The notes under the pieces: generated by a model
Told to the model about the DNA's origin: nothing
The model's input: only the letters and a program-made list of their open reading frames with translations
Database searches by the model: none
Position numbers and translations under genes: made by a program
Source: Ignavibacteriota bacterium
GTDB taxonomy: Bacteria; Bacteroidota; Ignavibacteria; Palsa-1295
Assembly (NCBI GenBank): GCA_003151825.1
Contig: PLYO01000031.1
Coordinates: 4,096-68,095 of the forward strand
Direction of reading: 5' to 3'
DNA: 64,000 nucleotides
In this document: in pieces, positions 8,226 through 50,003 of the stretch
How the letters are laid out: each line of letters opens with the position of its first letter
How positions within the stretch are numbered: position 1 is the stretch's first letter

Positions 8226-8291
8226 TCACCCCATCCCCTGCCGCTTGTGCAGATATTCCAGCCCGCTGCGGCGGGCGCGGTGAAGCGGAAC
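8226..8291 (-). repeat. Copy R1 of the DUF58 gene 3' tail
   Basis: TCACCCCATCCCCTGCCGCTTGTGCAGATATTCCAGC versus 10828ff: 3 mismatches in 37 nt. Confidence 0.9.
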
Positions 8292-8320
8292 TGTTACGGC
8301 TGCTTAATTGCTAAACCATC

Positions 8321-8539
8321 ATGAGATTATCTGTTCAATACGTAAATGACGTGCAGGGAAACGTTCAGGCGGTGCAAGTGCCCGTCGGCGAATGGAAGCG
8401 GCTTTTAAAGTCGATGCGAGGTTTGGAGCAGCGGCTGAAGCTGAAATCAGACCTGACGGAGGCGCTTGCGGAGGTCGAACGAAAACGCGCCGGCAAACAG
8501 AAAATGGAGTCGCTGGACGAATTTCTCCGTGCCTTATAG
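8321..8539 (+). CDS. Putative antitoxin
   Basis: 72 aa, overlaps the toxin start, ends LDEFLRAL. Confidence 0.75.
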   Translation: MRLSVQYVNDVQGNVQAVQVPVGEWKRLLKSMRGLEQRLKLKSDLTEALAEVERKRAGKQKMESLDEFLRAL

Positions 8540-8861
8540 CCTTAGCCCGACGGAACGGTTCAAGCACGAAGCGAAGCGGCTGATCAAAAAATATCGGTCG
8601 CTGACTTCGGAGTTACAAGAACCCTCGGAATTGCTCAAAAGCGATCCCCATCTTGGGCAAGACCTCGGTGCTGGATTATTTAAGATCCGGCTCGCCATTC
8701 AAAGCAAAGGAAAAGGAAAAAGTGGAGGAGCGCGAGTTGTGACTTATGTGATTGATAAAGACAAGGTCGTGCATCTTCTCACAATTTATGATAAAACCGA
8801 GCTTGATACGATCAGCACCCAGATTTTACGAGAGATTGCTCACGAAATTACCGAAAAATAA
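8529..8861 (+). CDS. RelE/HigB-like type II toxin
   Basis: GTG start; KKYRSL, KIRLAIQSKGKGKSGGARV, LLTIYDK. Confidence 0.85.
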   Translation: MPYSLSPTERFKHEAKRLIKKYRSLTSELQEPSELLKSDPHLGQDLGAGLFKIRLAIQSKGKGKSGGARVVTYVIDKDKVVHLLTIYDKTELDTISTQILREIAHEITEK

Positions 8862-8921
8862 TAATTGTCCAATTCCCCAAAAATAAATTAGCGTAATCCA
8901 TACAATCCGCGTAATCCAGGT

Positions 8922-8988
8922 TCACCCCATCAACTGCCGCTTGTGGAGATATTCGAGCAGCGCCGCGACGGGCGCAGTGGAAGGAAAC
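8922..8988 (-). repeat. Copy R2 of the DUF58 gene 3' tail
   Basis: 38 of 39 nt identical to 10828-10866. Confidence 0.92.
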
Positions 8989-9008
8989 TAAGATTTTGCG
9001 TAAGTGTT
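8984..9008 (+). promoter_or_regulatory. ECF-type promoter-like motif GAAAC-N16-TGTT
   Basis: Starts at the end of R2 and ends 9 nt before ATG 9018. Confidence 0.45.
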
Positions 9009-9017
9009 ATAAACGGT

Positions 9018-9230
9018 ATGAGCACAAAGACGGTATCTAAAACACGCGGCTTAAAGGAGCGCTCGCGGAAATCTCCAAATGGCCGGAGTCCGCGTACCAC
9101 TGCCTCGCTATGGGAAAAAATTGACGAATTAATCGCTCCCATCCCCGCATCGGAATGGTCGAAACTCCCTAAGGATGGTTCCGTTAACGTTGACCATTAC
9201 CTCTATGGCGCTCCGAAGCATCAGCCTTGA
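9018..9230 (+). CDS. Putative antitoxin
   Basis: Small ORF ending LPKDGSVNVDHYLYG, overlapping the PIN gene. Confidence 0.75.
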   Translation: MSTKTVSKTRGLKERSRKSPNGRSPRTTASLWEKIDELIAPIPASEWSKLPKDGSVNVDHYLYGAPKHQP

Positions 9231-9643
9231 TGCAGTATTTTGAAGATACCGGCTTTTGGATCGCTCGGCTCTCACGCAGCGACCAATGGCATACACAAGC
9301 TGTAGCTATTAGCGGAAGCTTCCAGCCATCCGACCGATTCTTTACCTCGGATTTCGTTCTGCTTGAATTGTTAAATTATTTTTCAACAGCGGGTTCATTG
9401 CTTCGCTTGAAATCTTCTACTATCGTTGAGGAGATCGAGAATGATCCTCACCACCGCATTCTTTCTACTTCATCAGAACACTTTCGCGAGGCTCGAAAAA
9501 TGTATGAGCGTCATTCCGACAAAGCATGGAGCCTAACCGACTGCTCTTCTTTCCAGCTGATGCGCGAACTCGGCATTCAGAATGCTCTCACGTTCGATCA
9601 TCACTTCGAGCAAGCCGGATTCCGAACGATACCCGGAATATAG
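9227..9643 (+). CDS. VapC-type PIN-domain toxin
   Basis: F-E-D-T N-terminus, VLLE, SLTDCSSF, LTFDHHF. Confidence 0.9.
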   Translation: MMQYFEDTGFWIARLSRSDQWHTQAVAISGSFQPSDRFFTSDFVLLELLNYFSTAGSLLRLKSSTIVEEIENDPHHRILSTSSEHFREARKMYERHSDKAWSLTDCSSFQLMRELGIQNALTFDHHFEQAGFRTIPGI

Positions 9644-9648
9644 AGAGC

Positions 9649-9669
9649 TTATCCGTCAACACTGCTTGT
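9649..9669 (-). repeat. Degenerate copy R3 of the DUF58 tail
   Basis: TTATCC-GTCAAC-ACTGCTTGT versus TTATCCCATCAACTGCCGCTTGT, 5 nt after the PIN stop. Confidence 0.4.
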
Positions 9670-10071
9670 CCTACAGAAACATACTGCGCTTCTGCCTTCA
9701 GTGATTGAATAAACATGCCACTCTCAAGCTTTATGACAGGGTACTGAGGGATTTTATAGCTATTCTATGCGATTTCTGATAGAATAAGGGATTATTTAAT
9801 AAAAAAGCAAAATTTCTATAAGAAAGCGAAACATTTATCGTTTTTATGCGTATAACCCAATTGCGAGCGTTGAGAGTGTAAACAGACCGCTGCCAGTACA
9901 GGCATGTATGATCCCTGCACAATGAAATCAAATGGCGCACTGGGGGCAATTCAAAAAGTCCTGCGCGGGTCTACCCTTAGCTTAGGAGACATTAGTTGCC
10001 GTGTTCTTTGAAAATGTATTGTGGCCTGTTGTAGTGTACTTTACGACAGGACTAAAATGATTGGAACGGAC

Positions 10072-10141
10072 TTATCCCATCAACTGCCGCTTGTGGAGAT
10101 ATTCCAGCAGTGCGCGGCGGGCGCGGTCGAAGGGCGTGAAC
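10072..10141 (-). repeat. Copy R4 of the DUF58 gene 3' tail
   Basis: Minus strand reads TPFDRA-RRA-LLEYLHKRQLMG*; all 5 differences in the first 45 nt are synonymous or stop-preserving. Confidence 0.92.
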
Positions 10142-10175
10142 CCAATCCTTGCGCTCATTCGTTAAGTCAAACAGC

Positions 10176-10532
10176 ATGAAACAAGCTTATCGCCAAACGC
10201 CTGCGCCAACGCACTCGCCGAAGAATCCGCGAGTGCAAACAGCGCGCGCGGTAAAAGCGAGACGAAAGCAAACTGTTTCGACTCCGAACGGTTCTCTTGC
10301 CGTTGATTCCACTATCCCTCGTTCGTTCGTGCCGATCTGGGAGATAAGTGAACAGGAACGCGAGAAAATTCGCAAAGACCTTGTCATTGGCCTCAAGGAG
10401 ATGAATGACCTTTATCTTGAGGAATCAAAAGCTTGGTATCCACTCGAAGAAGAAGTGTATGAAAAGTCAATTCGAAACGCTGGGCCGGGGCGACCTCATA
10501 CGAGTCGTCCTCGATCCCGTAAGAGGGCATGA
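10176..10532 (+). CDS. Putative antitoxin partner of MazF
   Basis: Upstream of and overlapping the PemK/MazF gene; acidic C-terminal part. Confidence 0.65.
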   Translation: MKQAYRQTPAPTHSPKNPRVQTARAVKARRKQTVSTPNGSLAVDSTIPRSFVPIWEISEQEREKIRKDLVIGLKEMNDLYLEESKAWYPLEEEVYEKSIRNAGPGRPHTSRPRSRKRA

Positions 10533-10824
10533 ACAATCGGGAATCCGCCCCGCTGTTGTTCTCTCGCCACTACTGATCAATGAGTTTTCCAGTACGATCT
10601 TAGTTGCCGCTTTAACCAGCAAGCGGCTCGATCGAATTTTATCTGTTGAAGTTCTGATCGAAGCGCCGGAAGGTGGTTTAAGATCGGATTCCAAAGTGCT
10701 TCTTCTTCAAATTCGATCGATCGACAAGAGTCGAATCATCGGCACATACGGCTCCTTGACTCAAGACACCATGAACCGAGTCGATCAAGCCCTCGCCATT
10801 GCGACAGGATTGCTGAAGCTATAA
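10459..10824 (+). CDS. PemK/MazF family toxin
   Basis: RGD..V.LDPVRGHEQSGIRPAVVLS, QIRSIDKSRI. Confidence 0.92.
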   Translation: MKSQFETLGRGDLIRVVLDPVRGHEQSGIRPAVVLSPLLINEFSSTILVAALTSKRLDRILSVEVLIEAPEGGLRSDSKVLLLQIRSIDKSRIIGTYGSLTQDTMNRVDQALAIATGLLKL

Positions 10825-10827
10825 CTC

Positions 10828-11733
10828 TCACCCCATCAACTGCCGCTTGTGCAGATATTCGAGCAGAGCGCGATCGAATGGCGTGGTGGTTTCGAGAAGC
10901 AGGTAATCAATCCCTTCGGCGATGAGGGAATCTTTCAAAGTTCCGAGGAATGCTTCTACCGATTTCTGATAGCTTGCCTGCATCTGGTATGGCTGGGTGC
11001 GAATTTGCTCGCCGGTTTCAATATCAACAATCGTAGCGTCGGCGGTTTCCAGTTCTAAGGTTCGTTCGGCGGGATCGAGCACTTGAAATGCAATGACTTC
11101 ATGTCCGGCATGTTGCATGAGCGAAAGCGGGAGCTTTATTTGGTCCGGCTCGTCTAAAAAATCGCTGATTACGATGACAAGTCCACGCCGCGTAAGTCGT
11201 TCGGCCACGCGGCGGAGCGCGGTTTCGGTGCGCGTGGCGTGCGATGGTTCCGTCGTTTGCAGCACACGCAGCATCTCCCGCAAATAACTTTGCTTGAGCC
11301 GCGCCGGCATGAAGGTGCGAAGCTCCTCATCGAAAATCGCGAGGCCAACAGCGTCTTGCTGTCGCATGAGCAAATATGCAAGCGCGGCGGCGAGCATTGT
11401 CGCGTACTTATATTTTGTAATGCGTTTCGGATCGCTCGTGTAATTCATCGAGCGAGAAGCATCGACGATAATATGCGCCTTGAGATTCGTTTCCTCTTCG
11501 TATTGCTTGATGTAATGCCGGTCGGTACGCGCGAAAAGTTTCCAATCTATATTGCGGATGGCATCGCCCGGCAAATAGGGACGGTGCTCCGCAAACTCGA
11601 CGGAAAAACCATGATACGGCGATTTATGCAAACCCGTAATAAATCCCTCCACCACGAATTTCGCGACCAGCTCCATCGAGCCGAGATTGGATGCGATTTC
11701 GGGTCGGAGATATTCGGTGGATTCGTCGGCCAT
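10828..11733 (-). CDS. DUF58 (vWA-like, MoxR-associated) protein
   Basis: GLHKSPYHGFSVEFAEHRPY..GD..R.IDWK, IKQYEEE, ISDFL. Confidence 0.92.
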   Translation of the reverse strand: MADESTEYLRPEIASNLGSMELVAKFVVEGFITGLHKSPYHGFSVEFAEHRPYLPGDAIRNIDWKLFARTDRHYIKQYEEETNLKAHIIVDASRSMNYTSDPKRITKYKYATMLAAALAYLLMRQQDAVGLAIFDEELRTFMPARLKQSYLREMLRVLQTTEPSHATRTETALRRVAERLTRRGLVIVISDFLDEPDQIKLPLSLMQHAGHEVIAFQVLDPAERTLELETADATIVDIETGEQIRTQPYQMQASYQKSVEAFLGTLKDSLIAEGIDYLLLETTTPFDRALLEYLHKRQLMG

Positions 11734-38533: not shown

Positions 38534-40042
38534 TCACTGCACATAGAACGTCTTGGCAATATTCGTCAAGATCATCGGAAAAATACCGAGAAAGAACAGT
38601 CCGACCGCAGCGAGGACAAGCGCAGCCCACGCGCTGATGGTATCGCCCTGAATAGCAACCGCTCCTCCCGGAGAAACAGCAAACTCTTCACCAGCTTCCG
38701 GTTCCCTAAAGTACATCACAACCATTACGCGAAGATAGAAATAAACCGAAATAAGCGTGGCGATCATGCCAAGAACGGCATAGACGGTTAGGCCGCTTCG
38801 AATGGCTGCAGCAAACACGTAATACTTAGCGAAGAAACCACCGAATGGAGGAATGCCGGTGAGCGAGAGCATCATGATCGACATGATAGATGCCATCCAG
38901 GGGCTGCGGCGCCCAAGTCCGGCGAGGTCACTAAGTTCCACCGCGCGGCCACTCTCTTTCTCAAGCATTGCAACCACGCCGAATGCGCCCATTTGCATGA
39001 GCGTATATACCGTGAGATAAATGGTAACTGCGGTTGCGCCTTCGCGGTCCATCGCAGCAACACCGAGCAGCATGTATCCCGCGTGCGCGATACTTGAATA
39101 CGCAAGCATACGCTTTAAATTCATTTGAGCAAGCGCGGTGATGTTACCATAGAACATCGAGGCAAGCGCGATGACCGCAAGGATGGTCTGCGTTTTGTGC
39201 ATGGCATCGGGATCCAATGCGATTGGCCCCATCGCAATGTTAAATATCAGAATGAGCGCCGCAAACGCACCGGCTTTTCCAGCCGTAGAGAAGAAACCAG
39301 CAACGACCGTTGGTGCACCCTCATAGACATCCGGCGCCCATTGATGGAACGGAAATGCCGCGATCTTAAAGCAAAATCCGACGAGCAGCATACCGGTCCC
39401 CATCCAGAACATGTGGCTGGCCAAGATGGCATGGGATGAAATGGGATTTTGAAGCGCCTTCGTAATTACATCGAGATTTGTGGTAGCAAACGTTCCATAG
39501 AATAATGCGATACCATAAAGGAAGAAACCTGTGGAGAACGCACCGAGCAAGAAATATTTAAGCGCGGCTTCATTCGACTCGCGGCGCTTGCGGAAAAGTC
39601 CTGCAAGCACATAAAAAGCGATAGACATCGTCTCCAATCCGAGAAACGTGACAATGAGATCGTTGCCGGAAGCAAGCATGATCATTCCACAAGCGGAAAA
39701 AAGCGTGAGTGCGCTGAACTCCCCGACCATCACTCCTTCATCTCTCAAATATCGCTCCGCAAGCAACACCGCGAGAATGACGCCAACCGAAAATAGGATC
39801 GCGTAAAAATTGGCAAAGCTATTATTGAGGATCATGCCGCTAAAAATGCGGCCTGTGTTATCAAGATTTAGATAGGCGGCAATAGCGGCGGCCAACGCGC
39901 CGAGCACGGTGAGAAACAGCGGAATGCGCAAGGGAATTTTTTCGAAGGCGTCCCACATCAGCACGACGACGCCCGTTCCCGCAAGAATGAGGAGAGGCAT
40001 GATGCCATAGATGTCGCGGGCGGTTACTTGAAAAGCGATCAT
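38534..40042 (-). CDS. nuoN: NADH-quinone oxidoreductase subunit N
   Basis: EAALKYF, PFHQWAPDVYEGAP, KRMLAYSSIAHAG. Confidence 0.95.
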   Translation of the reverse strand: MIAFQVTARDIYGIMPLLILAGTGVVVLMWDAFEKIPLRIPLFLTVLGALAAAIAAYLNLDNTGRIFSGMILNNSFANFYAILFSVGVILAVLLAERYLRDEGVMVGEFSALTLFSACGMIMLASGNDLIVTFLGLETMSIAFYVLAGLFRKRRESNEAALKYFLLGAFSTGFFLYGIALFYGTFATTNLDVITKALQNPISSHAILASHMFWMGTGMLLVGFCFKIAAFPFHQWAPDVYEGAPTVVAGFFSTAGKAGAFAALILIFNIAMGPIALDPDAMHKTQTILAVIALASMFYGNITALAQMNLKRMLAYSSIAHAGYMLLGVAAMDREGATAVTIYLTVYTLMQMGAFGVVAMLEKESGRAVELSDLAGLGRRSPWMASIMSIMMLSLTGIPPFGGFFAKYYVFAAAIRSGLTVYAVLGMIATLISVYFYLRVMVVMYFREPEAGEEFAVSPGGAVAIQGDTISAWAALVLAAVGLFFLGIFPMILTNIAKTFYVQ

Positions 40043-40053
40043 ATTATTCTTGT

Positions 40054-40199
40054 GTCATTGCGAGGAGAAAGAAGCGACCTCAGGAGCTTCTTTCGACGAA
40101 GCAATCTCGTGAGATGAACGAAGAGATTGCTTCGTCGGAATCACTGCCGCGCATGATCGGTCATGCGCGCTCCGCTCCGTGATTCCTTCTCGCAATGAC
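40054..40199. repeat. Multi-arm palindromic element, type B, forming the nuoM C-terminus and stop
   Basis: GTCATTGCGAG...CTCGCAATGAC ends; inner stem CGACGAAGCAATCTC/GAGATTGCTTCGTCG. Confidence 0.88.
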
Positions 40200-41785
40200 G
40201 TTCCAATGTGCGTTCGTTGGGCAGTCGATACCCCGCTCTGCTTCATCTTCAGCAAATCGTCCGACATCTGATACATCGTCCGTTCGCTCATCTTCATAAA
40301 ATTCATTGGCTGAATGCCAATCCAGATCATGAACACGACCATTGGCACAACGGCTACGAGTTCCCGCCAGTTTAGATCGGGGGTCGCGTGTCCGCCGTGG
40401 TCGGCTTCGGCGGCATGACCGTGGTCGTGTCCGGCGCTCGGCTTCGCGCCTTTCGGCAAACCGAAAACGAAACGCTGGTACATCCAAAGCAAATAAACAG
40501 CGGCGAGAATAACGCCTGTTGCGCTCCAAATTGCATAGGACCACGTATTCAGCACGGGAGAATAATACGCGCCCATCATTGTAAGATATTCGCCGATGAA
40601 ACCGTTAAGTCCCGGCAACCCAACGCTGGAAAAAACTGCAATGCCGAAAAATACTGAGAAGAGCGGCACCATCTTCGCAAGTCCGCCATATTCCGAAATT
40701 TCCCGCGTGTGACGGCGGTCGTACATCATGCCAAACATCATGAAGAGCATTCCGGTCGAAAGGCCGTGATTTATCATTTGAATGACCGCTCCCTGCAATC
40801 CCTCGCGCGTCATCGAAAAAATGCCGAGCACGATAAATCCCATGTGCGCAACCGACGAATACGCGATGAGCTTCTTCACATCCGTCTGCACCATCGAAAC
40901 GAGCGCACCGTATATAATGCCGATCACGCCGAGCACAGAAAACAGCGTGGAATAATCGAACGCCGCCTGCGGGAACATTTCGAGACAAAAGCGGATGAGG
41001 CCGTAGGTCCCCATCTTCAACAGTACGCCGGCAAGAATGACGGAACCAGCCGTTGGCGCTTCGGTATGAGCATCCGGCAGCCAGGTATGAAGCGGAAAGA
41101 TTGGAACTTTGATTGCAAAACTCAACGCGAATGCGAGGAATAGATAATGCTGAACGTCTATCGGAAGCTGACGCGAAACGACGAGCAGCTTTGTAATATC
41201 AGTCGTGAAATGCCCGGTGATATGCCCTGCTTCGATGCCCAGCCAGATAATGGCAACAAGCATTATCAGCGAACCCGCCATCGTATAGATGAAGAACTTT
41301 ATCGCCGCATAAATCCGCCGCTTGCCGCCCCACACGCCGATGATAAAATACATCGGAATGAGAATCACTTCCCAGAAAATGTAGAACAGGAAAAGATCGA
41401 GCGAGCAAAATACACCGATCATTCCTGCTTCCAGCAGCATGAGCAGCGCCATGAAAGCCGGTACGCTTTTCGTGATCGAATTCCACGTTCCGAAGATCGT
41501 CACGATCATGAGGAATGTCGTGAGCAGAATGAGCAGCATCGACATTCCATCCACGCCGACAAAATAGGTGAAGATTAGGCCCGGCAACGCAATCCAGGGC
41601 ATTTGCTCGGTGAGCTGATACCCGCCCAACGCAGAATTGAACTGCATGTAAACGACGAGCGAGATCACGAACGTGATGATGCTTGTCACGAGCGCGACCC
41701 ACTTCGCGGCTTCGGCCTTGCGCACCACCAGCGCGGCTAAAGCGCCCAAGAGCGGGAAAAAGATTAGTAGTGATAAAATACCCAT
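40055..41785 (-). CDS. nuoM: NADH-quinone oxidoreductase subunit M
   Basis: FYIFWE, KVPIFPLHTWLPDAHTEAP, KKLIAYSSVAHMG. Confidence 0.95.
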   Translation of the reverse strand: MGILSLLIFFPLLGALAALVVRKAEAAKWVALVTSIITFVISLVVYMQFNSALGGYQLTEQMPWIALPGLIFTYFVGVDGMSMLLILLTTFLMIVTIFGTWNSITKSVPAFMALLMLLEAGMIGVFCSLDLFLFYIFWEVILIPMYFIIGVWGGKRRIYAAIKFFIYTMAGSLIMLVAIIWLGIEAGHITGHFTTDITKLLVVSRQLPIDVQHYLFLAFALSFAIKVPIFPLHTWLPDAHTEAPTAGSVILAGVLLKMGTYGLIRFCLEMFPQAAFDYSTLFSVLGVIGIIYGALVSMVQTDVKKLIAYSSVAHMGFIVLGIFSMTREGLQGAVIQMINHGLSTGMLFMMFGMMYDRRHTREISEYGGLAKMVPLFSVFFGIAVFSSVGLPGLNGFIGEYLTMMGAYYSPVLNTWSYAIWSATGVILAAVYLLWMYQRFVFGLPKGAKPSAGHDHGHAAEADHGGHATPDLNWRELVAVVPMVVFMIWIGIQPMNFMKMSERTMYQMSDDLLKMKQSGVSTAQRTHIGTSLREGITERSAHDRSCAAVIPTKQSLRSSHEIASSKEAPEVASFSSQ

Positions 41786-41804
41786 TTATACAAAAATACG
41801 AAAT

Positions 41805-42131
41805 TTACTCTATACCCCTTAGTAATTCACGAAGTTCGGCATCCGAGATAGAGCTTTTCTCGGATTTATCGTAAATAGAGAGCAAATAGACGGTTGCACG
41901 TTCGACATAGATGTATGAAATTACTCGGCCGCCCGTAGATTTGCCCCGGCCTTTCGATTTTATCGCCAAACGGATTTTGTAGCAGTTGTGACCGATAGCT
42001 CTCCCAAGCTCCGGGTTTTCCTGCAACTCAGCGCCAAGGTCAAGAAGGTCTTGGCGAAGAGAGCGGTATTTTTTCGCTAATACTTTAGCTTCGCGATCAA
42101 AATGAGGGGTGGTTCGGACTGAATATGCCAC
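41805..42131 (-). CDS. RelE/HigB-like toxin
   Basis: KKYRSL, YKIRLAIKSKGRGKSTGGRVI, LLSIYDKS; same family as 8529-8861. Confidence 0.85.
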   Translation of the reverse strand: MAYSVRTTPHFDREAKVLAKKYRSLRQDLLDLGAELQENPELGRAIGHNCYKIRLAIKSKGRGKSTGGRVISYIYVERATVYLLSIYDKSEKSSISDAELRELLRGIE

Positions 42132-42133
42132 TG

Positions 42134-42337
42134 TTATAGCTTCTTCAAAAGCTCTTTCAATTCAGGAAGCTCTATCTCGCCACGTTTATGACGTTTCACG
42201 TCCTCAACAGCATTGCGTATTCCCTTGATGATCTCCGCTTTTTCAGGCGTCAGCCGAAGGGTTTTCGCGCGAATATTTCGCATCAGTTCAAAAAAGAACG
42301 GTGCCCGCTTATCGTCCACTTCTACGAGAACTTTCAT
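42134..42337 (-). CDS. Putative antitoxin
   Basis: MKVLVEVDDKRAPFFFELMRN..., directly upstream of the toxin. Confidence 0.78.
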   Translation of the reverse strand: MKVLVEVDDKRAPFFFELMRNIRAKTLRLTPEKAEIIKGIRNAVEDVKRHKRGEIELPELKELLKKL

Positions 42338-42346
42338 GCTACGAAT

Positions 42347-42371
42347 AACGCGAATGCAAATTGATGGTTCC
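42347..42371 (-). promoter_or_regulatory. ECF-type promoter-like motif GGAAC-N16-CGTT
   Basis: 9 nt before the ATG; identical spacing at 43199-43223 with a different spacer. Confidence 0.6.
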
Positions 42372-42425
42372 TGAATGACACAAAACAAGTAAAACCCGAA
42401 AACATCTTAAAATAAATTGTATCTA

Positions 42426-42816
42426 TCAAAGAAACGGATTTACAATGCGAACTCCTTCGATGATTTGATTATGCTGAAAATCTTCAGAGTAAAGCATAGA
42501 GCACTCCGCTTCGATGGCTGAGGCAAGGATGAGGCTGTCGTAATAGGAATAACGATAGCGAGCGGGCTTTTTTGATTGTTGCGATGGAGACGATTAAAAT
42601 ATCCACCGCGCTAACAACTTCATCGGCTATCGCGTCAATCTCTGGCCAGGAAAAACGGAATTTACCAGAGGAAAGCACATTCGAGAGTTCCGAAAGAACC
42701 TGAGTGCTACAAACTCTACCAACTCCTAAAAAAGCATCGCTCGCCTTCCGGTATTTATCCGGCTCAACTCTGGCGTAGTTATAGACGACAATGTTCGTAT
42801 CGACGAAACGTTTCAT
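42426..42816 (-). pseudogene. Frameshifted PIN/VapC toxin
   Basis: MKRFVDTNIV...IKKA, then in a shifted frame RYRYSYYDSLILASAIEAECSMLYSEDFQHNQIIEGVRIVNPFL*. Confidence 0.85.
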
Positions 42817-43046
42817 CGGCGGCGGTTCGCTTCCTCTCGATCGAACTTCCACCCGCGAGTGTCGATGCTAACTGCGTTGAAATGCGCATGAACCTCCTCG
42901 ACCGTCGAAAAAACGCGATTGCCGGGGCTTGTCTCGCCATTGGCTCCAAGATCGGATAATATCACTTCAACCGTGTGCCCGCGAAGCTCTTCGGGCACTT
43001 CGAGCACGATGGTTTCTTCCGTAGGTGTAATAATTTGCGTGAACAT
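42813..43046 (-). CDS. Putative antitoxin
   Basis: Ends WKFDREEANRR; ATGA overlap with the PIN gene; AGGAGG RBS. Confidence 0.8.
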   Translation of the reverse strand: MFTQIITPTEETIVLEVPEELRGHTVEVILSDLGANGETSPGNRVFSTVEEVHAHFNAVSIDTRGWKFDREEANRRR

Positions 43047-43078
43047 AATTCCTCCTGATACCCAGAACAGGGTTGTCT

Positions 43079-43189
43079 CTACTTAGTTTCACATCGCGTG
43101 CCAAGCAAACCCTTCGGAATGCGAATATTCCGCATCCGTTCAAAAAAGAACGGTGCCCGCTTATCGTCAACTTCTACAAGTATTTTCAT
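43079..43189 (-). pseudogene. 5' remnant of the 42134-42337 antitoxin
   Basis: 43121-43203 matches 42269-42351 at 75 of 83 nt; reads MKILVEVDDKRAPFFFERMRNIR and then diverges. Confidence 0.88.
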
Positions 43190-43224
43190 GCAAAGAATAA
43201 CGCCAGTACATTAAGCAAGTTCCT

Positions 43225-43299
43225 CTCGGACTTGCGCACAAGATGTGCAACAAGCGCGCCGAGGAACGGGAAAAATATGAGGAGTGAAAGTATGCCCAT
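43225..43299 (-). pseudogene. 5' remnant of a nuoM allele (25 codons)
   Basis: MGILSLLIFFPFLGALVAHLVRKSE versus NuoM MGILSLLIFFPLLGALAALVVRKAE: 20/25 aa, 53/75 nt. Confidence 0.88.
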
Positions 43300-43323
43300 T
43301 AAAGTCTATCTTTAACTTATTCG

Positions 43324-44694
43324 CTAACGATGTACGATGTGTCTATTTATCACATGCTCTCCGGCCCGGACGACAACGAAATAGTCTCCAGAAGGCAGTG
43401 AGCCATTGTCGAACAGAATAGGAATTTCATGGTCTCCAGCGGAATAATAACCATCAATCTGGGACAGAAGCGTTCTGCCCAGGAGATCGACCAATTCAAG
43501 CGAAACCTGTTCAGGCTGGCCCAAGGAAATGCGGATCGTTGTGACGTTATCGAAGGGATTCGGATAATTCTGGACATCAAAATCAGAAGACTCCGGGGCG
43601 GAAATGCTATTTACTTGCGAGTTCACTCGAATCTTGTACATAGATCCACCAGCGCAGTAGCCAAGCGTATCGCCAAAGAATCGAAAGCGATTGGCATACG
43701 TCGATTGATTGCCGAACGACCATGTTTCGCCGCCATTGGTCGTCGTGTAAACGCCGCCGACGGCCAAACCCCCTGCCCAGCCAATGCTATCCGTAATAAA
43801 TCCGATGCCCTGTAGATCAAAAAAGTTTGGTGTGATGACCTTTCTCACCCAGGTCAGACCGCCATCGGTCGTCTTCAAAAAGGTTGTATTCTCGGTCTCA
43901 TCTTCTGATTCGATGGAGACATATCCGACCGATCGAGATGGAAACGAAATCTTCCAGCACCAGCCATCCGAATCCGGGGACTGGTATCGCTGGCTCCAGC
44001 TCTCGCCGCCATCGGACGTGAAGAGCACGATCGCCGACGAATTCCATTCCGGGTATGATCCACCCACCACGATTCCGGAATCTCTCGACCAAAAATAAAT
44101 ATCAATGAGCCGCGTTGCGTAGGCGTTCATGTCGATTGATTCCCAACTTGTTCCGCGGTTTGTCGTCTTCAGAATGTAGGGTGGTCCATCCCATTTACCG
44201 CAGATGTACACCACGTCGGAATCGCAGGCCCACATGCCACAAAGACCGGCAGGCTTTTCGCCTTCGATCTTCGAATCGGCGACGGCCCACGTCGTTCCGC
44301 CGTCGGTCGTCTCGTAGAGGATCGCCGTATCGCTACTGGAGAACGCCGCTTCGAGGCCGAGTGTCCCGACCCAACCATGGAGCGAGTCCGAAAAACGAAT
44401 CGAACGAAGATAGCCTCCCATCGAATCGCGCACAACGGTCCACGTTGTTCCACCATTCGTCGTCTTGTAGATCTTTCCAAATTCAGTAATTGTATCGGAT
44501 GCGACGGAAAAAGCGTGGACCGCCCATCCGAGTTCGGGCGTGAGAAAGAAGACATCGTCGTACCGTTCACTCGACCAGGTGGTGCTCGGATGGGTAGCGG
44601 GCCATGAATCGGGATGAAGATCCTGCCATATAATCTGCTGCGCATGGGCACGATACGGTGAGAGTAGGAAAAGTAATGTAAGTAATCGTTTCAT
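43324..44694 (-). CDS. YCF48/Asp-box propeller protein with T9SS-type CTD
   Basis: KTT.GG.TW repeats, NYPNPF...GDYFV. Confidence 0.87.
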   Translation of the reverse strand: MKRLLTLLFLLSPYRAHAQQIIWQDLHPDSWPATHPSTTWSSERYDDVFFLTPELGWAVHAFSVASDTITEFGKIYKTTNGGTTWTVVRDSMGGYLRSIRFSDSLHGWVGTLGLEAAFSSSDTAILYETTDGGTTWAVADSKIEGEKPAGLCGMWACDSDVVYICGKWDGPPYILKTTNRGTSWESIDMNAYATRLIDIYFWSRDSGIVVGGSYPEWNSSAIVLFTSDGGESWSQRYQSPDSDGWCWKISFPSRSVGYVSIESEDETENTTFLKTTDGGLTWVRKVITPNFFDLQGIGFITDSIGWAGGLAVGGVYTTTNGGETWSFGNQSTYANRFRFFGDTLGYCAGGSMYKIRVNSQVNSISAPESSDFDVQNYPNPFDNVTTIRISLGQPEQVSLELVDLLGRTLLSQIDGYYSAGDHEIPILFDNGSLPSGDYFVVVRAGEHVINRHIVHR

Positions 44695-44707
44695 CCACTA
44701 TCAAATC

Positions 44708-46663
44708 TTAAAACATCACCAAATACCCCACTACCGCTAAAAGCCCGACGACGATCAGCACTGCGTAATTCTGCGCGATGCCGGTTTGAATGCGGCGAAT
44801 CGTTCCGGAGCCGATCTCCGTGATATGCGCCAGGCCGTTTACAAAACCATCGATGATCTTCACATCAACGATCTTCCATAAAAAGCTATTGCTGAAATTG
44901 AACATCGGCTGAACGATGGCCTTATCGTACATTTCATCGACGTAAAATTTATTATGCAAAAGCTGGTATCCACCGCCGAGCTGCGCTTCGTCCTTCGCAA
45001 GCGTCAGGCGCTTTTTGTAAAAACGAACCGCGAAACCTATGCCTAATACAGCGATGCCAACGGAGACAGCCATCAGTCCCCATTCGAGTCCGGCGCTATC
45101 TGCTGCACCTGCGACAAGCGAAATTTGCTCGCCGCGTTCGAGCACGGGACTCAGCCAGCTTTCGAACGCATTTCCGGCATGGAAAACGGAGGGCATTGCG
45201 AGAAATCCGCTAACCGTTGCAAGCGCGGCAAGCACGACGAGTGGCAGCCACATTTTCCAATCCACTTCGTGAGGCGGATGATGCTCGGCATCGAAGCGTG
45301 GCTTACCATAGAATGTCAGAAAAACGAGGCGGAACATGTAGAATGCTGTCATCAGCGCAGCAATTGCACTGATAAGCCATAGCACAATCGAACCACGGCT
45401 AAATGCTTGCCATAAAATTTCGTCCTTCGAGAAAAATCCGGCGAATGGCGGAATGCCTGCAATAGCAAGCGTGGCGAGGAAGAATGTCCAGAATGTGATG
45501 GGGAGATATTTTTTCAGTCCACCCATTTTCTGCATATCCTGCTCGTGGTGCATCGCATGAATGACCGCGCCAGAGCCTAAGAATAAACATGCTTTGAAGA
45601 ATGCGTGTGTCACGACATGAAAAACTCCAGCCGTGAACGCACCCACTCCAAGCGCGAGGAACATATATCCCAACTGCGAGACGGTCGAATACGCGAGAAC
45701 TTTTTTAATATCATTCTGGAAAATACCGATCATCGCGGCGAAAATGGCGGTCACCGCTCCAATGGCCGCCACCACGCCAAGTGTTGTTGGTGAAAGCGCG
45801 AAGAGGATATTCGATCTTGCAACGAGGAAAATACCACTCGTTACCATCGTCGCCGCATGGATAAGCGCGGAAACGGGCGTTGGGCCGGCCATGGCATCCG
45901 GTAGCCAAACATACAGAGGAATTTGCGCGCTCTTGCCGCAGCAGCCTAAAAACAACATTAGTGTTATTAATGTGACGTATGGGTCGCCATTGGACACATG
46001 GCTGGCTGCGCCAGCTGTTTTTACACCATCAATGATATTGCCGCCAGAGCCGAGGACATCAAGATAATTTAGTGACTGAAACAGCCACAGCATAATACCC
46101 ATCGCTACCAAAAATCCGAAATCGCCAATGCGGTTTACGATAAATGCTTTTTTTGCGGCATCGTTATTTTTATCTTCATCGTACCAGAATCCGATAAGGA
46201 GATAGCTGCAAAGGCCGACTCCCTCCCATCCTAAGAACGTCCACAAATAGTTATCGGCCATGACAAGCTGGAGCATCATGACGATAAAAAGATTCATATA
46301 GACGAAGAAGCGCCAGTAACCACGGTCGCCCTTCATATAGCTGATGCTGTACAGATGGATGAGCGCGCCTACACCCGTAATAACCAGCATAAACACGATC
46401 GAAAGCTGATCGATGAGATACGCGATATTCACCTGCACGCGCCCGACGTGAATCCAATCCAGCATCGTGTAATGGATCGCGCGCTGATCGGCGGGACGGG
46501 AGAGCATGTCGAGGAACAGCCCCGCCGTGATGATAAAGCTGATAAAAACAGCAATGGTAGCAATCCAGCCCGCCATCTGGCCCTTCATCCGAGAGCCAAA
46601 AAGCGTATTGATCACGAACGCCGCGAGCGGAACGAGAACGATATATGGAATTAGGTCAGTCAC
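44708..46663 (-). CDS. nuoL: NADH-quinone oxidoreductase subunit L
   Basis: GWEGVGLCSYLLIGFW, WLPDAMAGPTPVSALIHAATMV. Confidence 0.96.
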   Translation of the reverse strand: MTDLIPYIVLVPLAAFVINTLFGSRMKGQMAGWIATIAVFISFIITAGLFLDMLSRPADQRAIHYTMLDWIHVGRVQVNIAYLIDQLSIVFMLVITGVGALIHLYSISYMKGDRGYWRFFVYMNLFIVMMLQLVMADNYLWTFLGWEGVGLCSYLLIGFWYDEDKNNDAAKKAFIVNRIGDFGFLVAMGIMLWLFQSLNYLDVLGSGGNIIDGVKTAGAASHVSNGDPYVTLITLMLFLGCCGKSAQIPLYVWLPDAMAGPTPVSALIHAATMVTSGIFLVARSNILFALSPTTLGVVAAIGAVTAIFAAMIGIFQNDIKKVLAYSTVSQLGYMFLALGVGAFTAGVFHVVTHAFFKACLFLGSGAVIHAMHHEQDMQKMGGLKKYLPITFWTFFLATLAIAGIPPFAGFFSKDEILWQAFSRGSIVLWLISAIAALMTAFYMFRLVFLTFYGKPRFDAEHHPPHEVDWKMWLPLVVLAALATVSGFLAMPSVFHAGNAFESWLSPVLERGEQISLVAGAADSAGLEWGLMAVSVGIAVLGIGFAVRFYKKRLTLAKDEAQLGGGYQLLHNKFYVDEMYDKAIVQPMFNFSNSFLWKIVDVKIIDGFVNGLAHITEIGSGTIRRIQTGIAQNYAVLIVVGLLAVVGYLVMF

Positions 46664-46666
46664 GAA

Positions 46667-46969
46667 TTACCACTTCAAAATATTAACTTTCGTTACATCC
46701 ACGGTCTGCTTATTGCGGAAGAGCGAAATAATTATTGCAAGGCCGACCGCTGCCTCCGCTGCTGCAACGGTCATTACAAAAAAGACGAGAATCTGTCCGG
46801 TTTGATCACCTAAAAATTGGGAGAACGCGATGAGCGTGAGGTTAACGGCGTTCAGCATCAGCTCCACGCTCATAAAAACGACGATCGCGTTGCGCCGAAA
46901 AAGCACGCCCGCCGTACCGATCACAAAGAGGATCGCCGAAACCGCAAGATAATGACTTAGAGGCGCCAT
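46667..46969 (-). CDS. nuoK: NADH-quinone oxidoreductase subunit K
   Basis: [23 protein letters not shown]. Confidence 0.96.
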
Positions 46970-46975
46970 TTAATA

Positions 46976-47014
<39 letters not shown>

Positions 47015-47059
47015 CTTTGGCCCATTTGTCCCAAAAGTCCCATCCGGCTCACTGAAAAG

Positions 47060-47569
47060 TTAAACAAGTTTTTTCTTCGCCAAAATAATAGCCCCCACCG
47101 CTGCCGAAATAAGTATCAACGAAGCCATCTCGAATGGAAACGAATATCCGGTATAAAGCGCGCGACCAATGGATTCCGTAGTGCCAAGCACACCGGCCAT
47201 CGGACTGATGGATTTCGGCAGCTTATCCTCCGACATGAAGATCATCGCAAGAATTTGAGCGAGCACGCCGAGCACTGCCAGAATGCCGACCATTGCCTTC
47301 CAATTATTAGTGATTCGAATATCCTCGCTCTCGAGATTGAGCAGCATGATAACGAAAAGCACCAGCACCATAATTGCGCCGGCATAGACCGCAACTTGAA
47401 CAACAGCAAGGAATTGCGCCGATAAGGTCAAGTAAATTGCAGCAAGGAAGCAAAACGTGAGTACGAGCATCAGCGCGCTGACCACGGCGGATCGGCGCGT
47501 AATCGTAAGCAGCGCGAAGATAATCGCGCCCGCGCTCAAGACATAAAATGCAATTTCAGGCAGTGGCAT
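47060..47569 (-). CDS. nuoJ: NADH-quinone oxidoreductase subunit J
   Basis: QVAVYAGAIMVL, PFEMAS. Confidence 0.95.
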   Translation of the reverse strand: MPLPEIAFYVLSAGAIIFALLTITRRSAVVSALMLVLTFCFLAAIYLTLSAQFLAVVQVAVYAGAIMVLVLFVIMLLNLESEDIRITNNWKAMVGILAVLGVLAQILAMIFMSEDKLPKSISPMAGVLGTTESIGRALYTGYSFPFEMASLILISAAVGAIILAKKKLV

Positions 47570-49931: not shown

Positions 49932-50003
49932 GATCCCGTAGCTCAGTGGTAGAGCATCTGACTTTTAATCAGAGGGTCGTCGGTTCGAGCCCGCCCGGGG
50001 TCA
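49932..50003 (+). tRNA. tRNA-Lys (anticodon TTT)
   Basis: Acceptor GATCCCG/CGGGGTC, D arm GCTC/GAGC, anticodon arm TCTGA-CTTTTAA-TCAGA, GGTTCGAGCC T loop; no encoded CCA. Confidence 0.93.

Follow-up and report, generated by a model that had tools for sequence, protein, structure and literature searches.

Stacked toxin-antitoxin cassettes beside a diverged copy of the nuoM start in the nuo operon of an Ignavibacteriota genome

Introduction

Toxin-antitoxin modules are described as highly mobile, and the fixation of acquired systems as not yet understood (PMC2654758, in excerpt). Here we describe a stack of such modules between nuoL and nuoM, inside the nuo operon of an Ignavibacteriota bacterium from peat. 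The stack lies in a stretch of 64,000 nt (contig PLYO01000031.1, positions 4,096 to 68,095; G000:C12:4096-68095 in our genome set), which we call the window, and it contains a 25-codon copy of the beginning of nuoM, the nuoM stub, upstream of the intact gene. A scar of the form arm-insert-arm is what a Campbell-type single crossover yields when a circle carries one arm, a reaction known as a laboratory tool and for plasmids. We know of no demonstration that Campbell-type integration is a natural route for chromosomal toxin-antitoxin cassettes. The element SXT supplies a new promoter and 5′ coding sequence. Restriction-modification gene complexes, for their part, were reportedly described in 2000 by Nobusato et al. 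as undergoing insertion with long target duplication. In the excerpted text of Furuta et al. 2010 (PMC2853133), such insertions come with target duplications of more than 30 bp and no mobility genes, and the repeats often span a translation start or stop. The excerpted text of PMC2654758, on toxin-antitoxin modules, has the term "long target duplication" in its reference list only. SXT enters the 5′ end of prfC, a conserved gene that stays functional (PMC2791158, in excerpt), and among tycheposons arriving elements push older ones inward, leaving partial copies of the target gene dispersed across the island (bioRxiv 10.1101/2020.12.28.424599, in excerpt).

Our best reading of the locus, which we hold with a probability of roughly 55%, is a recombinase-less insertion with long target duplication that would proceed by homologous recombination among diverged congeners, with addiction modules favored as cargo.

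Results

A diverged copy of the nuoM start lies upstream of the intact gene

The nuoL stop (44708) and the nuoM ATG (41785) are separated by 2,922 nt. Along the minus strand the order is nuoL, a gene for a type IX secretion system (T9SS) propeller protein, the nuoM stub, a stub of antitoxin A, antitoxin B, a frameshifted PIN gene, full-length antitoxin A, a RelE/HigB-2-like toxin, a promoter box, and intact nuoM. An earlier note on this DNA had proposed essentially this arrangement, and the open reading frames (ORFs) and coordinates bear it out. The nuoM stub (43225-43299, minus strand) opens with an ATG, which 24 further codons of a second nuoM allele follow. The TTTAATG in front of it is also found at uninterrupted nuoL-nuoM junctions; the stub has no promoter box. 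Set against the live start, the stub has 9 identical codons, 11 with a synonymous change, and 5 with a nonsynonymous one, so that 20 of 25 residues and 53 of 75 bases match; a repeat search returned the two copies as a pair of 75 nt with 72% identity. Uninterrupted identity extends over no more than 9 nt (GTGCGCAAG, 6 nt short of where the stub ends). When searched in six frames against the whole 3.59-Mb genome, the 25 residues of the stub matched only themselves and the live nuoM start (E = 2e-7), and neither the second nuoM paralogue nor any other hydrophobic N-terminus was hit. A nucleotide search with the live start gave one match in the genome and thus missed the stub, as the earlier note had expected from identities of 80% in protein and 71% in DNA.

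The differences between stub and live start fall at codon positions 1, 2, and 3 in the numbers 6, 2, and 14, which places 14 of 22 at third positions. We roughly estimate that an in-place duplication followed by neutral decay of the stub would put 46% of differences there; for this single stub the excess is marginal (P about 0.07). Only two stub bases are absent from all 15 other nuoM starts of the genus, both nonsynonymous, and working starts have zero to five such private bases. Across the genus, nuoM starts are 62 to 90% identical, and the stub is 62 to 75% identical to every one of them. The live start agrees with its gene body: both are nearest to genome G014, with identities of 90% for the start and 86% for the body. 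The stub therefore looks like a little-decayed copy of a working allele, diverged to the extent seen between the starts of different species. The earlier note had gone further, saying that the fragment must come from a long-diverged allele under selection. Third positions and private bases support that origin without proving it, and the codon pattern is strong over the 26 stubs described below. We sought a donor allele by using two degenerate patterns for the stub's own residues, which gave zero matches in the metagenome contig collection.

Could the stub have a use of its own, as a 37-residue hydrophobic peptide, as a device coupling translation to the antitoxin stub, or as a silent spare start? 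It has an ATG and few private changes, and its frame stays open to a TGA (43186-43188) that overlaps the ATG of the antitoxin stub, forming ATGA. After codon 25, however, this frame reads cassette DNA; the start codon of the corresponding stub in G005 is lost (ATC); and four of the six insert-bearing genomes have no nuoM stub. Swapping with the live start is itself made unlikely by the 9-nt limit on identity. We regard a function of this kind as very improbable.

Public metagenome contigs across the junction

The genome G000 was assembled from a metagenome into 51 contigs and is estimated to be 98.4% complete with 6.6% contamination. A chimeric assembly of two strains, or a chance match to a hydrophobic N-terminus, would each give a spurious stub, and the earlier note had named both as refuting outcomes. 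Independent public peat metagenome contigs from three studies match the stretch with 0 differences. A 276-nt piece, X1 (43139-43414), bridges the end of the propeller gene, the nuoM stub, AGGAAC, and the antitoxin stub, and a 234-nt piece from the same sample, X3, bridges the same parts. Pieces from two further studies match both sides of the stub junctions. These public contigs are short, with a depth of about 3 to 4, and the X1/X3 sample may be the source of the G000 assembly, so that the two bridging pieces exclude a scaffolding error and are not fully independent support. There is no long repeat at the junction to mislead an assembler, the stub matches only nuoM in this genome, and the same architecture occurs in other genomes. 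An artifact is extremely improbable, despite the contamination estimate and the shallow public contigs. In a further run, X2, the pieces end within 5 nt of both AGGAAC boxes. At a depth of 3 to 4, breaks occur everywhere, and we read nothing into these ends. Among the public runs listed for the stretch, none was from RNA.

The nuoL-nuoM junction is a hot spot for small cassettes

We sought NuoM in 40 relatives and examined the 29 best loci other than that of G000. In G006 and G007 only the nuoM paralogue was matched, leaving 12 genus genomes with an orthologous locus. In 24 of the 29 relatives nuoL and nuoM abut (17 of 17 outside the genus and 7 of 12 within it), with spacings from a TAATG overlap up to about 165 nt. 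The remaining five, all congeners (G005, G011, G012, G013, and G014), hold other inserts of 1.7 to 2.6 kb. The survey of nuoL-nuoM intervals that the earlier note called for thus agrees with its view of a cassette stack set into the operon, and the junction is a hot spot for small cassettes without a recombinase of their own.

The G014 insert shares with ours the antitoxin-A stub and its junction, antitoxin B, the PIN gene, and antitoxin A. A gene resembling a REP (repetitive extragenic palindromic)-associated tyrosine transposase replaces the toxin, and other genes lie upstream. The two antitoxin-A arms of G014 differ at 1 of 69 coding bases. Upstream of AGGAAC in G014 we found no nuoM stub, similarity there being no greater than in shuffled sequence (P = 0.19). 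Because everything from the antitoxin-A stub through antitoxin A is common to both genomes, this block would be older than the split of G000 and G014. The transposase-like gene (L034 2727-3308) scores 62.7 bits, below the model cutoff of 80, and is surrounded by REP-like sequences; the last residues of antitoxin A are altered where it joins this gene. The G014 nuoL (L034 5245-7204) aligns in four overlapping frames, which may reflect sequencing errors of that assembly.

In G005 the insert consists of a lipoprotein gene, a pair that reads from its translation motifs as nucleotidyltransferase and HEPN-like, a 30-codon nuoM stub, and antitoxin A with its toxin. This nuoM stub has its own promoter box and ends at codon 32 (that of G000 ends at codon 25). 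G011 carries a 322-amino-acid (aa) gene and a PIN-like pair. In G012 a pair reading as HicA/HicB is followed by a nuoL-end stub of 23 codons, then by a lipoprotein gene and a PIN-like pair; G013 has, in this order, a PIN-like pair, a stub of the nuoL end (about 18 codons with the stop), and further genes, nuoL itself lying off the short contig. The PIN-like pair of G012 (L038) and G013 (L037) belongs to the same family as a cassette behind the gene G000:C21:964-2310. Since nuoM-start stubs and nuoL-end stubs occur at one and the same junction, it has been invaded from both sides. For the nuoL ends of G012, the live copy is 72 to 84% and the stub 67 to 72% identical to other genus ends, with 57 to 67% to the out-of-genus G021, all over a short sequence.

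A genome-collection scan found antitoxin A at only two loci, in G014 and G005; by their records, the relatives that share the cassette are one Ignavibacteriota metagenome-assembled genome (MAG) and one Candidatus Kapaibacterium MAG. In a nuoM tree, the six insert-bearing and three uninterrupted genomes form one clade of nine (support 81/88). This pattern fits one gain with clean losses, or several gains.

A promoter box accompanies the inserts

The 19 nt between the toxin gene and nuoM hold the box TTCGTATTTTTG (41791-41802, minus strand). Within it, TATTTTTG stands 5 nt before the nuoM ATG and is the TAnnTTTG element that the earlier note had assigned to nuoM. In the form T(T/C)CGTA(T/A)TTTTG, the box precedes nuoM in six of six insert-bearing genus genomes and in no uninterrupted one. 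It has 46 copies in G000, nearly all upstream of genes and often 4 to 8 nt before an ATG, and it looks like this organism's general promoter element, an extended -7 box that would give many leaderless messages. By position, the nuoM transcript would likewise be leaderless or nearly so. Searches of 39900-47100 for sigma-70-type promoters and intrinsic terminators returned no more than shuffled sequence did.

The same scar recurs at about 20 genes

We surveyed the first and last 40 residues of all 2,431 long ORFs in G000 for orphan copies that were at least 70% identical over at least 15 residues, lay outside other long ORFs, and fell within 8 kb. Of the orphan 3′ ends, 24 (from 20 genes) lay on the gene's own strand and downstream of it, 4 lay upstream, and the opposite strand had none. 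They are copies of the last 15 to 40 codons of about 20 genes, and they stand downstream of small cassettes. Orphan 5′ ends occurred upstream on the same strand 12 times, at nine genes, several of them being repeat elements and not true stubs. From our own reading of their C-terminal sequences, the target genes look like housekeeping genes; the DNA from gene to stub mostly holds pairs that read as toxin-antitoxin modules.

One such array lies in the window itself, behind a gene for a DUF58 protein (10828-11733, minus strand; family confirmed by Pfam), and the earlier note had likened the nuoM locus to its mirror image at a 5′ end. The likeness holds. Within 8226-10830 on the minus strand, orphan copies of the last 12 to 20 codons lie at about 10075-10137, 8925-8981, and 8226-8262, with a MazF/PemK pair, a PIN pair, and an opposite-strand RelE-like pair between them (Pfam families MazF/PemK, PIN, and RelE). 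Extra copies of the DUF58 end number three in G000, two in G009, and one each in G005 and G006.

The codon pattern of these stubs bears on the alternative of an in-place duplication, by a staggered break or a replication error. The two arms would then be identical at birth, and if the live gene were later overwritten by related alleles, the stub would be a fossil. The restriction-modification long target duplications are indeed near identical, for example, at 44/46 and 417/423 (PMC2853133, in excerpt). The single difference between the G014 antitoxin-A arms points the same way, as do the TTTAATG kept by the nuoM stub and its five nonsynonymous changes, which would fit about 10% neutral decay. 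In-place duplication without allele replacement, however, predicts mostly nonsynonymous differences. Over 26 ungapped stubs (612 codons), differences at codon positions 1, 2, and 3 number 48, 36, and 156, that is, 156 of 240 or 65% at third positions (P = 2e-9 against the 46% estimate; P = 3e-9 for 3′-end stubs alone). Individual stubs in relatives show the same tendency: 5, 0, and 13 for the G005 nuoM stub (P = 0.02) and 2, 1, and 11 for the G012 nuoL stub (P = 0.01). With allele replacement added, the in-place account becomes hard to tell apart from our preferred one. Overall, we consider an in-place origin decidedly unlikely.

A second start-side case lies outside the window (G000:C23:3321-6210), where a 185-aa gene has two upstream orphan copies of its first 22 to 25 codons. 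The live ATG has the same promoter box 5 nt ahead of it, and one copy of a repeat of about 300 nt adjoins. This repeat family, of about 270 to 330 nt with a hairpin-like conserved beginning, has 15 copies genome-wide (examples are G000:C27:27732, C33:20085, and C50:60588). One copy directly follows a DUF58 stub in the window (about 9790-10062), where it has no Rfam match, and another follows the stub of gene C21:964-2310. Several copies sit at contig ends, so the repeat probably breaks assembly.

No dedicated recombinase or junction motif is apparent

G000 encodes three tyrosine recombinases, one passing the XerD model and one XerC-like. Against the integron-integrase model TIGR02249 (cutoff 265) they score 123, 72, and 45 bits. 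There are one serine recombinase, no IS110-type genes, and six Y1 transposase-like hits. None of the recombinase or transposase hits is on contig C12, and the six nuoL-nuoM intervals contain no recombinase genes. Using no dedicated attC model, we looked for attC-like inverted repeats within 150 nt at the junction zones and found none except one 72% match with an arm inside the PIN gene. No 7-mer was common to the junctions more often than among random windows. G000 has ComEC and DprA, but 10 to 11 of 14 control genomes have them too, which makes them permissive only.

The junction of the nuoM stub does have one sharp feature. The stub ends at 43225 and is followed by one A (43224) and then GGAAC (43219-43223), as the earlier note had observed. 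Here the antitoxin-A stub unit begins (43121-43224, minus strand), with AGGAAC at 43219-43224, a 29-nt leader, and the first 23 codons (43121-43189, ATG at 43187-43189). It matches 42269-42372 of the full antitoxin-A unit at 86 of 104 bases, the longest identical run being 31 nt. That full unit (42134-42372, minus strand) has its own AGGAAC at 42367-42372, then a leader and the complete 66-aa antitoxin (42134-42334). A paralogue of antitoxin A on contig C34 (G000:C34:12200-12530; 49% identical), which has a decayed toxin remnant, keeps GAAACCATC in register with the AGGAACCATC box of the window, about 36 nt before its ATG. This suggests that AGGAAC is a regulatory element of antitoxin A, and GGAAC looks like the first conserved bases of the family's own 5′ region. 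The GGAAC box, which the earlier note had assigned to the next unit, is real, but it is not a general cassette delimiter, because no motif is common to the junctions of other loci.

These observations bear on a different account, in which a trans-acting site-specific recombinase would insert the units as integrase-less satellites whose attachment site copies the end of the target gene, the stubs being attL or attR remnants. A unit that brings a replacement gene end, with older ends pushed away and stubs in tandem, is the anatomy of serial integration (PMC2791158; bioRxiv 10.1101/2020.12.28.424599; both in excerpt). The sharp AGGAAC edge of the antitoxin-A unit, present in four contexts, and a tyrosine recombinase of unassigned type on C27 are in its favor. 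Against this, at least 20 unrelated target genes would have to be served, in a genome that is 98% complete, by a single non-Xer tyrosine recombinase and a single serine recombinase. Moreover, the junctions share no motif, no recombinase gene lies in the six intervals, and arm lengths and end points vary between events at one gene, the end being codon 25 in G000 and codon 32 in G005. AGGAAC also persists at a distant paralogue in another part of the genome, which is what one would expect of a regulatory element. Site-specific insertion is thus, in our judgment, an unlikely origin, though one to be taken seriously.

Other genes of the interval and its surroundings

The left anchor, nuoL (44708-46663, minus strand; 651 aa), is intact and passes the cutoffs of PF00361, PF00662, and PF01010. 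Its 3′ end is nearest to that of G014, at 88 to 94% in the last 300 nt. Thirteen nucleotides past its stop begins the propeller gene (43324-44694, minus strand), which encodes a secreted BNR/Ycf48-like beta-propeller of 456 aa (PF14870, 53.2 bits) with a T9SS C-terminal sorting domain (TIGR04183, 33.8 bits against a cutoff of 23). At E ≤ 1e-40, no homologue was found in the 14 of 14 other genus genomes. The propeller cassette is flanked by TTTTAA at the nuoL stop (44705-44712) and by TTTAATG before the nuoM stub (43297-43306); the common TTTAA could be a 5-nt target duplication, or chance. A crossover in nuoL that imported the propeller block was considered and rejected, since nuoL shows no break and is nearest to G014 all the way to its end.

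Antitoxin B (42813-43046, minus strand; 77 aa) ends in a TGA that overlaps the ATG of the PIN gene (ATGA), and a 64% identical paralogue on C50 also adjoins a PIN gene. The VapC-like PIN toxin gene (42426-42816, minus strand) is a pseudogene: alignment and three-frame translation place a frameshift after about residue 85, where 11 nt are absent relative to the C50 copy and to G014. On PF01850 it scores 17.6 bits, below the cutoff of 23.6, and the G014 orthologue passes with 43.6. The window copy thus does not have the intact PIN domain by which a VapBC pair is recognized, and the gene is decaying. It is also a mosaic (42560-42816, compared with L034 and G000:C50:144381-145013). Its first two thirds have about 50% protein identity to the G014 orthologue; the C-terminus, at 73%, and antitoxin B, at 92%, are both much closer.

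The toxin gene (41805-42131, minus strand; 108 aa) starts 2 nt past the stop of antitoxin A. Its product matches solved HigB-2 chains over residues 31 to 104 (E = 1.3e-9) and scores 24.1 bits on PF06296, under the cutoff of 27. By homology and operon arrangement, antitoxin A and this RelE/HigB-2-like gene form a predicted type II toxin-antitoxin pair, which is kept in G005 as well. Neither antitoxin A nor antitoxin B matched a Pfam or NCBIfam family.

The right anchor, nuoM (40055-41785, minus strand; 576 aa), is intact (PF00361, E = 8e-80) and 83 to 92% identical to its genus orthologues. Relatives align only to about residue 520 to 557 of its 576 aa. The extra C-terminal residues (window 40054-40199) cross nested inverted repeats at 40091-40108/40123-40140 and 40054-40070/40183-40199, which look like a REP-type element inserted at the gene end. 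Downstream, a 502-aa ORF (38534-40042) that matches the genes at the nuoN position of relatives at 85 to 91% is a candidate nuoN. An Rfam search of the window gave nothing in the nuoL-nuoM interval and a single tRNA, at 49932-50003.

Discussion

How could a stack of this kind arise without a recombinase? We propose that cassettes insert at the extreme end of a conserved gene and that a short stretch of the gene end lands on both sides of the insert, one copy keeping the gene intact and the other becoming a stub. The duplicated lengths would be 75 nt at the nuoM start, 104 nt at the antitoxin-A start, and, in relatives, 55 to 69 nt at the nuoL end. Where a gene start is duplicated, the joined copy would also bring a consensus promoter, making nuoM independent of read-through from nuoL. 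The two copies appear to be different functional alleles, which implicates DNA from diverged members of the genus; either the insert brought its own gene end or the live copy was later overwritten by ordinary allelic recombination. The most likely route would be homologous recombination anchored in the conserved gene, as a Campbell-type single crossover of a circle carrying one arm or as one-sided homology with an illegitimate join. A single crossover of a one-arm circle would give this scar, tandem stacks, and clean loss between arms, and host recombination would suffice for it. The cargo is probably dominated by toxin-antitoxin pairs because these penalize their own loss. The 31-nt identical run in the antitoxin-A arms means that recombination could still delete antitoxin B and the PIN gene.

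Several observations weigh against this proposal. The genome is metagenome-assembled, with the contamination estimate given above. We detected the stubs by protein similarity, which favors conserved ones, and the loci within a single genome do not count as independent. Bias in detection would nevertheless not produce cases like the one with 9 silent and 0 replacement codons out of 40. Next to antitoxin A and RelE, the nuoM arms of G000 and G005 are 77% identical and the stubs 64%, no more alike than the gene bodies, so the cassette is not seen carrying its arm between these genomes. The live start agrees with its gene body and no sampled genome accounts for the stub, and either nuoM copy could be the native one. 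The AGGAAC edge of the antitoxin-A unit, the same in four different upstream contexts, could mark the end of a defined element. With at most 9 identical bases, the nuoM arms share too little for efficient RecA recombination, and the stack is probably frozen. We encountered neither a circular form nor a fresh insertion, nor any haplotype of this species with the site empty, and so we infer the route from its scars. What the data display directly is the structure, the empty sites, the recurrence, the allele pattern, and the lack of an integrase, attC-like hairpins, or a junction motif; the direction of transfer and the role of addiction are, like the route, conclusions drawn from these. It remains our preferred explanation, at the probability given at the outset.

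A broader version of recombinase-less insertion can be put forward only tentatively. Conserved gene ends may serve as portable homology arms of a general cassette system, an integron-like platform without an integrase. A unit with 50 to 100 nt of a housekeeping gene end would loop out and reenter the same gene in a related species, arrays would stack, and each arm would be kept working as the live gene end in some members of the population. This is a possibility that we think doubtful at present. If true, it would be a long-sought route for moving chromosomal toxin-antitoxin modules, and the system is dense enough here, at about 20 loci including even the nuo operon, for direct study.

The roughly 20 like scars, together with the empty sites and the different cassettes that sister species carry, point to a route for which no dedicated enzyme is required. 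The case also shows that selfish cassettes can split a core respiratory operon if each insertion rebuilds the gene end and brings a promoter. This bears on operon prediction and on the "pseudogene fragments" of metagenome genomes. Stubs would preserve alleles of unsampled relatives and so record past recombination.

Among described systems, SXT likewise inserts into a conserved housekeeping gene at its 5′ end and leaves it functional. It is an element of about 100 kb with its own tyrosine recombinase, Int, and near-identical attP and attB, whereas the units here measure 0.6 to 1.5 kb and have no recombinase. Tycheposons, in the excerpted account, use tyrosine recombinases and integrate by tRNA genes; the targets here are the ends of many protein-coding genes, and there is no integrase. 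Integrons and integrase-less attC clusters resemble our arrays in that small, mostly promoterless cassettes rich in toxin-antitoxin genes lie in one orientation by a promoter. They differ in having IntI, attC palindromes, and conserved core sites; here there are none of these, and the delimiters are copies of neighboring gene ends. Campbell-type integration leaves the same scar, by a route that here is a proposal.

Insertion with long target duplication shares with our locus an addiction-type unit without mobility genes, direct repeats of more than 30 bp, and a single copy of the repeat at the empty site of a relative; because the repeats often cover a translation start or stop, the target gene is left intact. 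By the description of Furuta et al., the insert is less than 20 kb (2,922 nt here) and free of mobility genes, and the repeat, with arms of 75 nt here, exceeds 30 bp and is single at the empty site. The cargo consists of toxin-antitoxin pairs and a secreted protein, with no restriction or modification genes, which makes this locus a variant rather than a strict member of the published class. The repeats of the restriction-modification cases are near identical, and the arms here are 70 to 95% identical with mainly synonymous differences. Here, too, unlike in those cases, the scars occupy about 20 loci of one genome, form tandem stacks, and in their start-side form come with a promoter.

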